Assembly (NCBI GenBank): GCA_022772305.1
Contig: JALFAQ010000006.1
Span: 5,478-69,477 of the forward strand
DNA from: Corynebacterium glucuronolyticum
Lineage (GTDB): Bacteria > Actinomycetota > Actinomycetes > Mycobacteriales > Mycobacteriaceae
DNA: 64,000 nucleotides
Direction of reading: 5' to 3'
Below are positions 34,841 to 38,938 of the stretch, one piece after another (the first letter of the stretch is position 1; each line of letters opens with the position of its first letter). A program made the position numbers and the translations under genes. Under the pieces are notes generated by a model. The model was not told the origin of the DNA. It worked only from the letters and a program-made list of their open reading frames with translations, and did not search any database.

Positions 34841-36207
34841 CGGGTCAAGTCCCGTGTAGTGGTGTAGCCGTCTAGCTTTCGGCTCGGTATGAAGTTGGGG
34901 GTTTTGTTAGGCGGTTAGCTGGTGATGTTCACCGTGTTCACCTCCGGTTTGTTGCTGGATCCAATCGTCGTGCTGCTCGGCAAGAACCGCGCCGACAAGC
35001 CGGATGATGGATTCGCGGTTCGGGAAGATGCCCACAACATCGGTGCGCCGGCGGATCTCCCGGTTTAGCCGCTTGAGTGGGGTTATTGGGCCACACTTTT
35101 GTCCAGACTGGTTTCGGCGCTGCGGTAAACGCCAACACGTCATCGAGTGACTCTTCTAGATAGGCCGCAACCTGCGGGAACTTTGGTTCCAGTAGATCAA
35201 CGACTTCGCGGGCTTGTCCCCAGGTGGATTGAGCGTCGGGTTGCTGGAAGATTGTCTGGAACATCGCAGAGACCATCGGCCACTGTGTCTTCGGGACCTT
35301 TTCGTAGAGGTTTTTCGCGAAATGGGTGCGACAGCGCTGCCACGACGCATCGGGCAGCACTTCAGAAATGGCGTGCTGGATGCCCTCATGAGCATCACTG
35401 GTGATAAGGAAGACACCGCGAAGCCCGCGGGCTTTTAAGTCCTGGAAGAAGCCTTTCCACGACGCGTTGGATTCCGCGGTGGCGACATGCATGCCGAGCA
35501 TTTCGCGGTAGCCGTCGGCGTTGACCCCGGTGGCCAAAAGTACGCAGCATTTAACCACCCGGCCGCCTTCCCGCACCTTGATCGCGAGTGCTTCGCACGA
35601 CAGGTAGGCATACCCACCGGGATCCAGGGGGCGGTTTTTGAAATCTGCGACCATCTCGTCGAGTTCTTCCGACATCCGCGAGACTTGCGATTTCGACATG
35701 TTGGAAATCCCAAGCGTTGCCACCAGATCGTTCATTCGGCGGGTGGAAACCCCTTTGAGATAGCAGGTTGCGATCACGGTCGATAGTGCGCGTTCGGCAC
35801 GTGAGCGTCGCTCGAGCAGCCAGTCCGGGAAGAACGCGCCGTGTGGCGCAGCTTCGGCACTGCCACATCGATTGTGCCGACTCTGGTGTCGAGGTCGCGG
35901 TGGCGGTACCCGTTGCGGTGGTTGACCGTTCGGTGGAAGCAACACCGTATTCAGCCCCGCACACGGTATCAGCCTGGGCGGAGAGGATCTGGTTGATAAA
36001 CCCTTGCAGCATCTGCCGCATCAGATCCGGCGACGCTTGGGTCAGCAAATCATCCAGATAGGTTGTCGGGTCGATAGAATGCGGAGCAGCGGTCATCGTC
36101 ATGTGCCTTTCAGTGAGATGTGATAGTTGAGTCGAAAGGTTACTGACGATGGCCGCCCCACTATTTTCAAGGGCCCACCATCAGCAAGCATTACACCACA
36201 CTAAGGG
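34841..36207 (-). mobile_element. IS256-family insertion sequence (defective)
   Basis: About 1.37 kb unit carrying an IS256-type transposase. Imperfect terminal inverted repeats CCCGTGTAGTGGTGTAG (34841-34857) and CCCTTAGTGTGGTGTAA (reverse complement of 36191-36207), 12/17 identical. No clear target-site duplication seen. Confidence 0.65.
34907..36102 (-). pseudogene. IS256-family transposase, at least three frameshifts
   Basis: Protein is split over three frames: MTMTAAPHSID...AEYGVASTER / VNHRNGYRHRDLDTRVGTIDVAVPKLRH / FFPDWLLERR...[11 protein letters not shown] / [37 protein letters not shown]. Confidence 0.8.
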
Positions 36208-36811
36208 ACGCAACCATCGCACCTTTGTTGGTGCGAGCTTGGGAGGGATCGACCGCACGACGGTCATACCCCAAAGCCGTGGCCAACGCTTCCGCATCAG
36301 CCTCCAACTCCTCGAGGGTGTCCCCGTTGAGCCTGCCCGCCATCTCGGCAGGGAGGCCAGCCTTCTTCAAAACGCCGGCGATCATGCGTTTGCGCTCTGC
36401 GTCGGCTTTTTCCTTTTCAAGTTCTGCAAGGCGAGTCTGCAGCTCGTCACGCTGCTTCTGTGCCTTCTCCAACTCGGTCATGTCCTTTTCAGCGATAGCG
36501 TCGAGTTGCTTCTTCAACTCGTCTCTCTCCGCTTCAGCCGCCTGTCGCTTATCACGCTCACGAGCGAGATCCCCAAGAACAGCCCGCTTCGAACCACGAG
36601 CGTCCGGATTCTCCTCTGATTCATCATCAGCTTCGGGGTCAGCGTTACCTTCAGCGCCTGATTCATTATCAGTCTCAGACTCACGGTCCGAGCTCGTCAC
36701 TGAAGACCCCTGCGATGGTGTGACACTGGCACTACCTTGGGTCGCTGCTACGCCGCCAGTATCGGCTTCAGCAGTAAACATCCGCACCCACGGGGGCATA
36801 CAAATCTTCAC
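36191..36811 (-). CDS. phage capsid scaffolding protein, 3' end interrupted by the IS256 element
   Basis: Acidic N-terminus plus coiled-coil (ERDELKKQLDAIAEKDMTELEKAQKQRDELQTRLAELEKEKADAERKR), located after a MuF gene as in phage head modules. The last 5-6 codons and the stop lie inside the IS inverted repeat. Confidence 0.6.
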   Translation of the reverse strand: MKICMPPWVRMFTAEADTGGVAATQGSASVTPSQGSSVTSSDRESETDNESGAEGNADPEADDESEENPDARGSKRAVLGDLARERDKRQAAEAERDELKKQLDAIAEKDMTELEKAQKQRDELQTRLAELEKEKADAERKRMIAGVLKKAGLPAEMAGRLNGDTLEELEADAEALATALGYDRRAVDPSQARTNKGAMVASLSVV

Positions 36812-36907
36812 TTGTTATTTTCTCCTTAAAACAATGATCGCCCACCAAACATGCGGGCATGAAAAAACCCACCACACAAACGTGATGGGCAACCTTATGA
36901 AATTTGA

Positions 36908-37189
36908 CTAATTTTTTAACTTTAGCAAAACCCACTTAAGACGGAGAACATCAGACTCAAAACTAATCTGCGAAAGGATTCGCTCAGCCACAACACGAAC
37001 ACCATCAGGCACCACAATGCCAGACGAAGCTAGATAATCAAGCACATCAATTGCTGCACTAACTTCTTCCCCGACTTCAGCTCCCTCAACGACATGTAGC
37101 CGCAAATTGTCCGGAAGTAATGCCCAAACAAGGTCAGCAAGTGCCAACACATCAGAGTCAATAGACGCTCGATCTTCAATTTCAATCAT
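36908..37189 (-). CDS. putative immunity protein for the upstream EndoU-like toxin domain
   Basis: 93-aa acidic ORF. Its ATG overlaps the toxin stop (ATGA). Markedly AT-richer than the surroundings. No family recognised; assignment is by position only. Confidence 0.45.
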   Translation of the reverse strand: MIEIEDRASIDSDVLALADLVWALLPDNLRLHVVEGAEVGEEVSAAIDVLDYLASSGIVVPDGVRVVAERILSQISFESDVLRLKWVLLKLKN

Positions 37190-38295
37190 GCGCCTACCTC
37201 CTTTCTGCGAATCACCGACAAGTCCAAGCCAACTTCAACTTTACCCTCGCTTGCATTCTTCACAACCCCTTGGCCATTGCGCGGGTAAGTTGCGCCAAGA
37301 GTGCGTTTTCCGTTCATACTACCGTGCTCAATGTAATAACTAGCCTTCACGAGAACATCGTCCACAACTCTGTATAACACCCGAGTCGTTCCAGCCATCT
37401 CGGTAGCATGCGGTGACTGTAACGTCATCAGCACAGCTTGCTTGATGTCTTGATCTGACCACCAGGGCGGGAATTCCGTCTTCCTCGCACGCCCTGTCCC
37501 CGACCTGTGCCCACCACGGAGCTTCTGGCCTGGAACAGCTGGATCACCGTCAAGAATATGCACCCAGTCCTTATCGGTTACAGTCGGGCGTAGATCATCC
37601 GCTGGAACCTCCTGGGCAAACTCCGCCAAGTCCGGTGCATCATCTGGCCAGCCTTTCGAGAAATCAACCCTACTCACCGGGCCGTACGTTCGCTCCGGCT
37701 TCAAATACTGATACTGGAGCAACAACTCCCGCATCCGATCCTCATCACCACCAGCACGGCGCATAATCTCCGGCACCGACAACCTACGCCACCCTCTGCG
37801 CGGAGCACCATAGATCGTAAACGGCTTCACACCATCACCCACACCCGTCATACCCTGCAACGAGTTGACTACCTCCACATAGTCCGCGCCCTGGCGAATC
37901 GCCTCCGCACCAGCCTTCGTAAAATATACATCCTGCTGGTCCTTGCTCAACGAGTTGAAATAAGCATCCACATCGAAATGCGGACCAGCGAATTCGATAT
38001 CCTTCCCCGCTTCTACCGGCACCTGCGTGCAATCACACCCAGGGTGCCGCTTAAAAGGCTTCGACCAAAACCCCTTCTTTCCCGCCAAAATCGCACACCT
38101 AGCACAACACGGAAGATTCGCCATCCGCACATACAACGTTCGAGGCCTCGCTAACCCCGCCACGGCCTTAGCCATACGCTGAGTATCAATCAAACCAGTC
38201 TGCACAACCGTGGCCAACAGTTTCCCACCGTTTTTCCACGCCTGGGCTGGGGCAACCCCCACAGCCAACTGCTCACGCACACGGTTAGCCACCAC
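37186..38295 (-). CDS. 5'-truncated phage MuF (SPP1 gp7-like head morphogenesis) protein with C-terminal EndoU-like RNase toxin domain
   Basis: MuF signature YVRMANLPCCARCAILAGKKG...FKRHPGCDCTQVP. C-terminal WVHILDGD...GGHRSGTGRARKTEFPPWWSDQDIKQAV...ATYPRNGQGV matches the bacterial EndoU pattern (His, His, Lys intact). An in-frame stop 37 nt upstream of the GTG and an integrase fragment 88 nt away show the N-terminus is lost. Confidence 0.65.
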   Translation of the reverse strand: MVANRVREQLAVGVAPAQAWKNGGKLLATVVQTGLIDTQRMAKAVAGLARPRTLYVRMANLPCCARCAILAGKKGFWSKPFKRHPGCDCTQVPVEAGKDIEFAGPHFDVDAYFNSLSKDQQDVYFTKAGAEAIRQGADYVEVVNSLQGMTGVGDGVKPFTIYGAPRRGWRRLSVPEIMRRAGGDEDRMRELLLQYQYLKPERTYGPVSRVDFSKGWPDDAPDLAEFAQEVPADDLRPTVTDKDWVHILDGDPAVPGQKLRGGHRSGTGRARKTEFPPWWSDQDIKQAVLMTLQSPHATEMAGTTRVLYRVVDDVLVKASYYIEHGSMNGKRTLGATYPRNGQGVVKNASEGKVEVGLDLSVIRRKEVGA

Positions 38296-38383
38296 GCATC
38301 GCGCAATGCCAGTGGATCGACAAAAACAGGATTAGTATTTCGCGTGCGGTAAAAGACCACCATCGCGAAATAAGCGTCGGGGG

Positions 38384-38815
38384 TTGAAGGGGCACGAAAG
38401 AAGGGTGGTGAGTGTCCCCGGGTTTCTCATGCAGCGCCTAGTGATGCTATCCGCCGGGCTGGCTCCGCATGATTTTATTTTCCGTAGGAAATCGGGAAAA
38501 CTGTGGGGGCATTTGGGGAGGAATGATTTCTTTGAGCAGGCGGTAGGAAGACTTGTTGCTCGTGGGGTTCTGGAGCAGAGGGTGACGATCCATGGGCTTA
38601 GGCATGTGGCGGCGGGTTTGTTGGTGCAGTCTGGTGCGTCGGTGAAGGTGGTGCAGCGTCAGTTGGGGCATAAATCGGCTGCGATGACGCTGGATACGTA
38701 TGCGGAGCTTTTTGATGGTGAGTTGGATCAGGTGGGGGTTGCGATGGGGGAGGTTTTTTCTGGTGTCGTGAAATTGTCGTGGAGTGGGGTTCCGTTGCGG
38801 TGTGCGGGTGGCTAA
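38384..38815 (+). pseudogene. tyrosine recombinase/phage integrase, C-terminal fragment
   Basis: Only the catalytic C-terminus is present (HGLRHVAAG, LGHKSAAMTLDTYAELF). The N-terminal core-binding domain and first catalytic Arg are absent. It ends 38 nt from the tRNA-Leu 3' end. Confidence 0.75.
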
Positions 38816-38853: not shown

Positions 38854-38938
38854 TGGTGCGCCCGGGGAGACTTGAACTCCCACGCCCTAAGGCACTAGAA
38901 CCTAAATCTAGCGCGTCTGCCAATTCCGCCACGGGCGC
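38854..38938 (-). tRNA. tRNA-Leu (TAG), type II with long variable arm, CCA encoded
   Basis: Reverse complement GCGCCCGTGGCGGAATTGGCAGACGCGCTAGATTTAGGTTCTAG...GGGAGTTCAAGTCTCCCCGGGCGCACCA; acceptor GCGCCCG/CGGGCGC; anticodon loop TTTAGGT. Confidence 0.85.

Follow-up and report, generated by a model that had tools for sequence, protein, structure and literature searches.

MuF polymorphic toxins have been described by Jamet et al. 2017 (BMC Biol 15:75, PMC5576092), who listed EndoU_bacteria among the MuF toxin domains and placed MuF2-4 in Firmicutes and Actinobacteria, with a MuF4-EndoU protein in Bifidobacterium bifidum. Among the entries listed in their supplement, the only Corynebacterium one is phage BFK20, which is marked MuF-minus. 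A second point of reference is CdiA-CT(STECO31), an interbacterial toxin of the metal-independent EndoU family that is neutralised by its cognate immunity protein (PMC9086364). Here we describe a locus in a stretch of 64,000 nucleotides (nt) from Corynebacterium glucuronolyticum (contig JALFAQ010000006.1), referred to as the window, in which two coupled open reading frames (ORFs) at 36908-38295 encode what is left of a MuF-type minor head protein with a predicted EndoU-family RNase domain, 369 amino acids (aa) in all, and a 93-aa candidate immunity protein. An initial annotation of the window had taken these ORFs for an EndoU-bearing MuF protein and its immunity gene, a reading that is right in kind but overstated; where an intact phage gene had been implied, we found a 5'-truncated relic within a prophage remnant of ~2.1 kb. 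The two ORFs, and the two parts of the longer one, are the following.

36908-37189, minus strand: 93-aa ORF, candidate immunity gene; acidic, AT-rich, with its own ribosome-binding sequence and a predicted five-helix product
37186-38295, minus strand: 369-aa ORF with a GTG start, from the open-reading-frame call
37636-38295, minus strand: truncated MuF/VG15-like minor head protein part (phrog_1522, E=2.8e-30; 97% identical to P0001)
37186-37635, minus strand: linker and compact, predicted EndoU-family RNase toxin domain (hhalign, BLASTP, invariant columns, AlphaFold2 (AF2) model)

The motifs on which the initial annotation relied were all found (YVRMANLPCCARC, FKRHPGCDCTQVP, WVHILDGD, GGHRSGTG, KTEFPPWWSDQDIKQAV and ATYPRNGQGV) and, as it had described, the toxin stop and the start of the 93-aa ORF share an ATGA at 37186-37189. 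The ribosome-binding sequence of the small ORF, AAAGGAGG, lies 8 nt 5' of its start. Its composition was also as reported, AT-richer than its surroundings, with a G+C fraction (GC) of 0.443 and a GC at third codon positions (GC3) of 0.34, compared with 0.564 (GC3 0.62) for the MuF part, 0.547 for the C-terminal domain and 0.612 for the whole window. The protein is acidic (isoelectric point, pI, 4.3), and the host is a Corynebacterium, a 95%-identical 93-aa protein being named from C. glucuronolyticum. The pair of toxin and 93-aa gene was found again in intact prophages at 95-98% identity. The ratio of non-synonymous to synonymous substitution rates (dN/dS) was 0.04-0.25 across all parts of both ORFs, indicating that they are real coding sequences, a ratio that cannot tell selection on the relic from constraint inherited via the phage lineage.

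The truncation was evident from comparison with the closest homolog, P0001, a full-length protein of 481 aa that is 97% identical across the whole 369-aa query. In this alignment the window ORF begins at residue 113 of the full-length protein, with ORF residues 1-220 corresponding to residues 113-332, and the match to phrog_1522 starts only at profile position 126 (126-357 of 591). In nucleotide comparison with the intact prophage, homology starts exactly at 38296, continues at 94.7% identity down to 36856 and picks up again in the scaffold gene as far as 36196, while comparison of the junction showed no relation between the MuF gene and the sequence upstream of 38296. The first 112 codons of the gene are missing, the 369-aa ORF being the stretch that has stayed open; no convincing start site was found, the GTG being simply the first such codon after the upstream stop. 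The window is 99.97% identical to contig JAQYPX010000033.1 of assembly GCA_028726585.1, in whose annotation only 300 aa are called for the MuF-EndoU gene, from an internal TTG start.

In intact relatives the genes are ordered TerS-TerL-SPP1-type portal-481-aa MuF/EndoU-93aa-scaffold-major capsid-tail, on to the tape-measure protein. A complete head and tail module surrounds the 481-aa protein gene in the contig of P0001 and in three other contigs, and the prophages L001, L009, L010 and L012 are intact, with the MuF-EndoU gene in the head module. At the window locus a functional temperate phage or prophage head module is absent; beyond the relic the 64,000 nt hold no further phage genes, and none for a terminase, portal, capsid or tail protein. 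The elements that flank the pair are as follows.

38854-38938, minus strand: tRNA-Leu(TAG), probable attachment site of the former prophage (ARAGORN; Rfam tRNA, 54.7 bits)
38384-38815, plus strand: tyrosine integrase C-terminal fragment of 143 aa, N-terminal part deleted (PF00589, E=4.5e-12; phrog_1 integrase)
38296-38383, no strand: deletion junction zone (blastn against the intact prophage L001 and comparison of junction sequences)
36867-36890, minus strand: terminator-like hairpin then a T run (consensus scan; putative function)
36191-36811, minus strand: head scaffolding protein gene (DUF4355), last surviving prophage gene (PF14265, E=1.3e-6; several PHROG scaffold families)
34938-36102, minus strand: IS256/Mutator-family transposase pseudogene, split over two frames (PF00872, E=1.7e-87)

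The 3' end of the tRNA-Leu(TAG) points toward the integrase fragment, in which the PF00589 match is limited to profile positions 62-169 of 172. On the other side, the scaffold protein is 86% identical to that of the intact prophage L009, and the IS256 pseudogene is the distal boundary of the relic, one of its frames matching PF00872 at profile positions 85-338 of 379. Searching for a second attachment site as a tRNA-derived direct repeat gave only chance-level repeats; the Rfam scan returned the tRNA only, and PADLOC had no match at the locus. Two side observations concern these elements. The IS256 transposase consists of two overlapping frames (ORFs of 335 and 183 aa) and is probably a frameshifted pseudogene. 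The hairpin, a 10-bp stem followed by TTTTTTC, stands between the 93-aa ORF and the scaffold gene, which is an odd position for a terminator within a late operon; it may allow the toxin-immunity pair to be expressed separately.

The N-terminal part had been assigned to Phage_Mu_F (PF04233). Its derivation from a MuF-type phage minor head protein was upheld, whereas membership of PF04233 was not: this profile gave no match at E<=1 for the 369-aa ORF, nor at E<=0.1 for P0001. The best Pfam match of the backbone was VG15 (PF25310; E=1.4e-3), whose cut-off of 26 bits it missed with 19. The truncated MuF part bears the PCCxRC...HPGCDC motif, and the order of portal, MuF gene and scaffold is kept in the intact relatives. 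The assignment of the backbone to a VG15/MuF-like minor head family is secure, because phrog_1522 matches it, PF25310 is annotated on many homologs of the window protein, and the Gordonia phages Ewald and Dogfish encode in the same position a 'MuF-like minor capsid protein' that is 35% identical over 90% of the query.

For the C-terminal ~130 aa, direct scanning with PF14436 (EndoU_bacteria) gave 14.5 bits with the ORF and 18 bits with the domain alone, below the cut-off of 25.3. The proposed EndoU-family identity was instead reached by homology via intermediate proteins and by profile comparison. A search with the C-terminal domain found actinobacterial proteins of ~200 aa (P0122-P0125), all four of which are precomputed as PF14436 and two of which passed the cut-off on rescan (P0122 with 48.5 bits and P0125 with 35.1 bits). 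The window domain aligned with P0125 over 110 columns, covering the whole domain (BLASTP E=4e-12), and a profile of six phage MuF C-terminal domains matched one of five PF14436 members in hhalign with 99.5% probability (E=3e-23). In the family itself, 11 of the 15 members match PF14436 at E<=0.1, and an NCBI label on the C. lactis homolog reads 'EndoU domain-containing protein'. EndoU family membership of the domain is established by sequence homology, and its activity as an RNase is predicted.

The EndoU core spans ~37246-37569 (residues 243-350), and its candidate catalytic residues are His246 (37558-37560), His263 (37507-37509) and Lys272-Thr273 (37477-37482). The His/His/Lys layout described initially was confirmed in that H246, H263 and K272 are invariant across the aligned relatives; in 15 sequences the full set of invariant positions is H246, G261-G262-H263, K272, F275, P276, P295, P338, G341 and V344, while T273 is kept in at least 90% of 11-15 sequences. 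The motifs are collinear with PF14436, the first at profile positions 6-32 and the second at 63-110. CdiA-CT STECO31 (H187/H204/K261/T262) shows the same His-His spacing of 17 and likewise has its Lys and Thr side by side, with the equivalence of H246/H263/K272-T273 to the catalytic residues of 5HKQ being one of motif order only. AF2 gave a confident model of the domain (predicted local distance difference test score, pLDDT, 85; predicted template modelling score, pTM, 0.82), although the EndoU/RNase fold match that the initial annotation had anticipated was not obtained with Foldseek. The model consists of a helix with the first His, the GGH loop, a second helix and six strands, an order of elements that agrees with the published description of EndoU-like toxins, in which two histidines near the N-terminus precede six core strands (PMC7297114).

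Two further variants of the domain were observed. A second Corynebacterium subgroup (L017:4004-5410; P0009, P0017, P0028, P0034) has an EndoU-like domain with an insertion of 20-25 residues between GGH and K(T/S)FFP; this domain is not recognised by Pfam and is followed by its own, unrelated acidic ORF of 106 aa. In Gordonia sihwensis (L054:3614-5483), a MuF protein carries an EndoU-like variant, GHGFHRSGLGVKDDEFPAGW...VHPYD, with no Pfam match, followed by an acidic ORF of 91 aa.

The position of the 93-aa ORF, its coupling, its charge and its variation with the toxin domain support the prediction that it behaves like a cognate immunity gene. Its dN/dS against the intact prophages is ~0.2. 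On another contig (L002) a 99-aa homolog, 36% identical (E=5e-21), follows a 71%-identical toxin, so the small ORF diverges faster than the toxin. Immunity proteins usually diverge faster than their toxins. As the initial annotation had stated, the protein belongs to no recognised family, with no match in Pfam, PHROGs, NCBIfam or PADLOC. A phmmer search over 1.84 billion representative proteins found two true distant relatives only, P0137 (99 aa) and P0138 (100 aa). AF2 predicted five helices with a pLDDT of 92.5, and Foldseek of this model against the PDB gave nothing significant (best E-value 3.3).

ORFs beside EndoU-like domains are all of 83-106 aa with a pI of 4.0-4.7, and no similarity was detected between their groups (Gordonia phages, G. 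sihwensis, Corynebacterium insertion forms). The small ORFs beside toxin domains other than EndoU are likewise unrelated to the 93-aa ORF, and the downstream ORF differs with each toxin type. Two sets of candidate relatives were rejected. The downstream ORFs of the Gordonia phages were considered as members of the same family, and pairwise comparison gave no significant similarity to the 93-aa protein. P0136 (1419 aa, 12 stretches) and P0140 (1325 aa), considered as poly-immunity proteins, are tandem-repeat translations whose phmmer E-values (9e-32 and 2e-4, respectively) come from summing ~10 bits per repeat; repeat matches of this type are a trap for automated family building.

The C-terminal extension of the window protein is ~150 aa long, and matches to the backbone form three groups: those covering the whole query, those covering the first ~54% only and carrying other C-terminal domains (PF18451 CdiA_C, PF15644 Gln_amidase, PF03496), and short forms of ~345 aa. 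One genome per species was scanned, giving 53 actinobacterial loci that were analysed by script, with a long form defined by at least 250 aa after the HPxCxC motif and a small ORF by fewer than 150 aa. A small downstream ORF followed 9/9 long forms and 6/35 short forms (Fisher p=7e-6), and 29 of the 35 short genes run directly into a scaffold gene of ~200 aa. Among the nine long forms the C-terminal domain was CdiA_C at two loci, an ADP-ribosyltransferase at two and Gln_amidase at one, and the remaining four had no Pfam match. At L066 (G. sihwensis) an N-terminal part that is not MuF is joined to an EndoU domain that clears the Pfam cut-off with 28.6 bits, with an acidic ORF of 83 aa downstream. 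The actinobacterial VG15-type backbone reproduces the statistics that define MuF polymorphic toxins in Jamet et al. 2017 (PMC5576092). A side observation concerns L016 (JAUDUO010000002.1, labelled Staphylococcus chromogenes M79.2), which encodes a short MuF protein 53% identical to the Corynebacterium protein, followed by a scaffold gene of actinobacterial type, and may be contamination or a mislabelled contig.

The following explanation accounts best for these results, and we hold it, as a whole, to be probable. In intact phages, the 481-aa protein is encoded between the portal and scaffold genes, and its first ~330 residues form a MuF/VG15 minor head part that, going by SPP1 gp7 and the MuF-toxin model, would be loaded into capsids and expelled along with the DNA. 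Its last ~130 residues would form a compact EndoU-family RNase that cleaves RNA in the cell receiving it, with tRNA anticodon loops as a possible target, and the coupled acidic, helical 93-aa protein would act as cognate immunity factor, keeping this RNase blocked in lysogens. The locus itself is a relic of ~2.1 kb (36196-38296) of a temperate Corynebacterium siphophage that was probably integrated at the tRNA-Leu(TAG). One deletion joined codon 113 of the MuF gene to an integrase gene that is likewise truncated, removing the N-terminal half of the integrase and everything between, and an IS256 element removed everything beyond the scaffold gene. Both toxin domain and immunity ORF are still intact, the toxin without its N-terminus, its operon context and a capsid to carry it, and the pair survives as a non-deliverable toxin-immunity cassette. 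Since delivery is impossible in the window, immunity is the only plausible surviving function; decay of the region is just as possible as survival of that function.

Several results count against this explanation. The window protein falls under the Pfam gathering score for both PF25310 and PF14436 and is without a PF04233 match. The subfamily lacks about 30 PF14436 profile positions after the second His and before the Lys, and for this reason the catalytic residues are assigned by motif order and not by superposition. Foldseek of the C-terminal model returned no EndoU, RNase A or Nsp15 structure from the PDB or BFVD at E<=0.001, and PDB sequence searches with the ORF, the C-terminal profile and P0122 reached no EndoU entry, 5HKQ included. 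No ribosome-binding sequence was found at the GTG of the truncated ORF, and a promoter scan there was at background level. The matches that the PDB sequence searches did give, a chance RFC match and designed repeat proteins, were rejected, none of them being EndoU.

The rival that survives best, although we rate it as somewhat unlikely, is that the locus is neutral debris, in which the two ORFs are open only through the recency of the deletions and neither is functional now. In its favour, they lie in a patchwork of broken genes (integrase fragment, frameshifted IS256 transposase, truncated MuF gene), the low dN/dS was possibly inherited from the phage lineage, and the same relic occurs in only a few assemblies. 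Against it, 462 codons are still open over the two ORFs, and independent relics keep the small ORF too. This rival concerns present function only, what the genes encode being undisputed.

Those other relics bear on a second rival, according to which the relic was kept for the immunity gene alone, as protection against EndoU toxins in the virions of related superinfecting phages, with the toxin as a decaying passenger. The small ORF is retained in at least four relics that were truncated in different ways, namely the window/L005 relic, L008, L069/L070 and the form of P0002, another with a replaced N-terminus. The L008 relic (L008:4844-6004), which together with L011 and L013 lies at a different site of a C. 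glucuronolyticum chromosome beside IS3 fragments, has a toxin broken in the EndoU domain by an in-frame stop (ASY*IEHG), with loss of the invariant C-terminal strand including P338/G341/V344; its 93-aa ORF is unbroken and differs from that of an intact prophage by 4 changes that are all synonymous, the non-synonymous count being 0. At L067 (1560-2640) and L068 the small-ORF homolog P0138 has no toxin gene upstream. In L069/L070 a truncated toxin of 276 aa, its C-terminal domain intact, is kept together with P0137, which is present on at least 24 contigs, 15 of these with the same gene neighbourhood. The pattern suggests retention of immunity, to which we give low weight because the relics were sampled by searching with the pair itself: all of them were found by a toxin or immunity-protein query, and relics with neither fall outside the sample. 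Moreover, the substitutions may be older than the deletions, expression and protection are both hypothetical, and the toxin domain in the window is still fully intact. We regard it as unlikely that the window relic was kept for its immunity gene alone.

The broader proposition, that Corynebacterium repeatedly keeps small relics of this kind and that an orphan gene of the 93-aa type gives standing immunity against capsid-borne EndoU toxins, we consider improbable; if true, a domesticated immunity gene would serve as a defence against phages or competitors, and truncation breakpoints ~12 nt apart might have been favoured or selected. Such breakpoints were observed as a separate matter: in two independent relics the MuF gene is cut at sites ~12 nt apart near codon 110/481 (L008:4885 and, in shared coordinates, L005:4894). 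The flanks differ (integrase and tRNA-Leu at 38296 in the window, IS3 fragments in L008), and so do the microhomologies involved (GGTGGCT and GATTAAG); the near-coincidence could reflect a hotspot, selection or coincidence. Also noted were a change of PCCARC to PCYARC in L008 and, in L067, two further 99-aa ORFs after P0138, one per strand, beside a sigma-70 region-4 gene; the L067 locus is a possible small island made up of orphan immunity genes.

A third rival keeps the biochemistry of the toxin reading and differs from it in purpose: the C-terminal domain would be an RNase of benefit to the phage, ejected with the DNA for host takeover or counter-defence, and the small ORF would encode a packaging chaperone or assembly inhibitor. 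The Gordonia phages Ewald and Dogfish have the same architecture and a small downstream ORF, and one paper reportedly describes enzymatic domains on phage proteins that are polyvalent or ejected. However, the alternative domains on the same backbone are classic interbacterial toxins (CdiA_C, ADP-ribosyltransferase, Gln_amidase), and a small ORF specific to each domain is the pattern of toxin and immunity, which makes this purpose improbable in our view. Finally, a chromosomal addiction or abortive-infection module of toxin-antitoxin type, with an internal start and a labile immunity protein, is highly improbable, as the intact toxin domain with all its invariant residues, the translational coupling and strong ribosome-binding sequence of the small ORF, the terminator-like hairpin just after the pair and the 276-aa truncated toxins of L069/L070 with their intact C-terminal domain (P0137 on at least 24 contigs) are set against a truncated ORF with neither a promoter above background nor a ribosome-binding sequence, the lack of a PADLOC match, the inactivation of the L008 toxin without loss of the locus and, to our knowledge, no labile immunity proteins among polymorphic toxins.

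With the relic of a MuF-EndoU toxin phage as the preferred explanation, the locus is best annotated as a truncated or pseudogenised MuF-EndoU gene with an orphan-like immunity gene, and not as an active toxin system. Whether immunity genes outlive their phages through host protection could be tested cheaply on the recurring relics in which the small ORF is kept. For specialists in polymorphic toxins there is nothing surprising here. Of the novelty initially claimed, the unrecognisable immunity family stands, whereas a MuF-EndoU combination in Actinobacteria had already been published (PMC5576092), which reduces the novelty.

Like the MuF polymorphic toxins described there, the intact protein is a minor capsid protein encoded beside the portal, in which a variable toxin domain of 100 aa or more forms the C-terminus, and a small ORF of fewer than 150 aa, presumed to be the immunity gene, comes next. 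It differs in its backbone, which is of VG15/phrog_1522 type without a PF04233 match, and the window copy differs further in being a 5'-truncated relic without a phage. With CdiA-CT(STECO31)/CdiI (PDB 5HKQ; Michalska et al. 2018, via PMC9086364) the window domain shares the succession of His, 17 residues, His and then Lys-Thr, but it lacks ~30 of the residues that separate the second His from the Lys, neither sequence nor Foldseek searches with the window domain matched 5HKQ, and delivery is by type V secretion there and would be by phage capsid here. CdiI(STECO31) is mixed alpha/beta (PMC9086364), whereas for the 93-aa protein an all-alpha structure of five helices is predicted.

The stand-alone EndoU_bacteria proteins P0122-P0125 (~200 aa) are the closest recognisable EndoU members, 38% identical over the domain, and share with the window the pattern HILDGDP..GGHRSGTGR..KTEFP..W.D..I..AV...P...WP..G.GVV.N; they are not fused to MuF, and their N-terminal ~95 residues are unrelated. 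The Gordonia phages Ewald and Dogfish (genus Nyceiraevirus) have the same two-part architecture, with an EndoU-like domain, between portal and scaffold, and an acidic ORF of 88 or 93 aa downstream. Unlike the locus studied here, their downstream ORFs have no detectable similarity to the 93-aa protein and no GC dip, and the toxin domain is unmentioned in their GenBank annotation. Compared with these systems, what is new is the relic state of the window copy and a Corynebacterium lineage of MuF polymorphic toxins, now documented, with a VG15-type backbone, a compact EndoU variant that lacks ~30 residues and a very small, helical and previously unannotated family of candidate immunity proteins.

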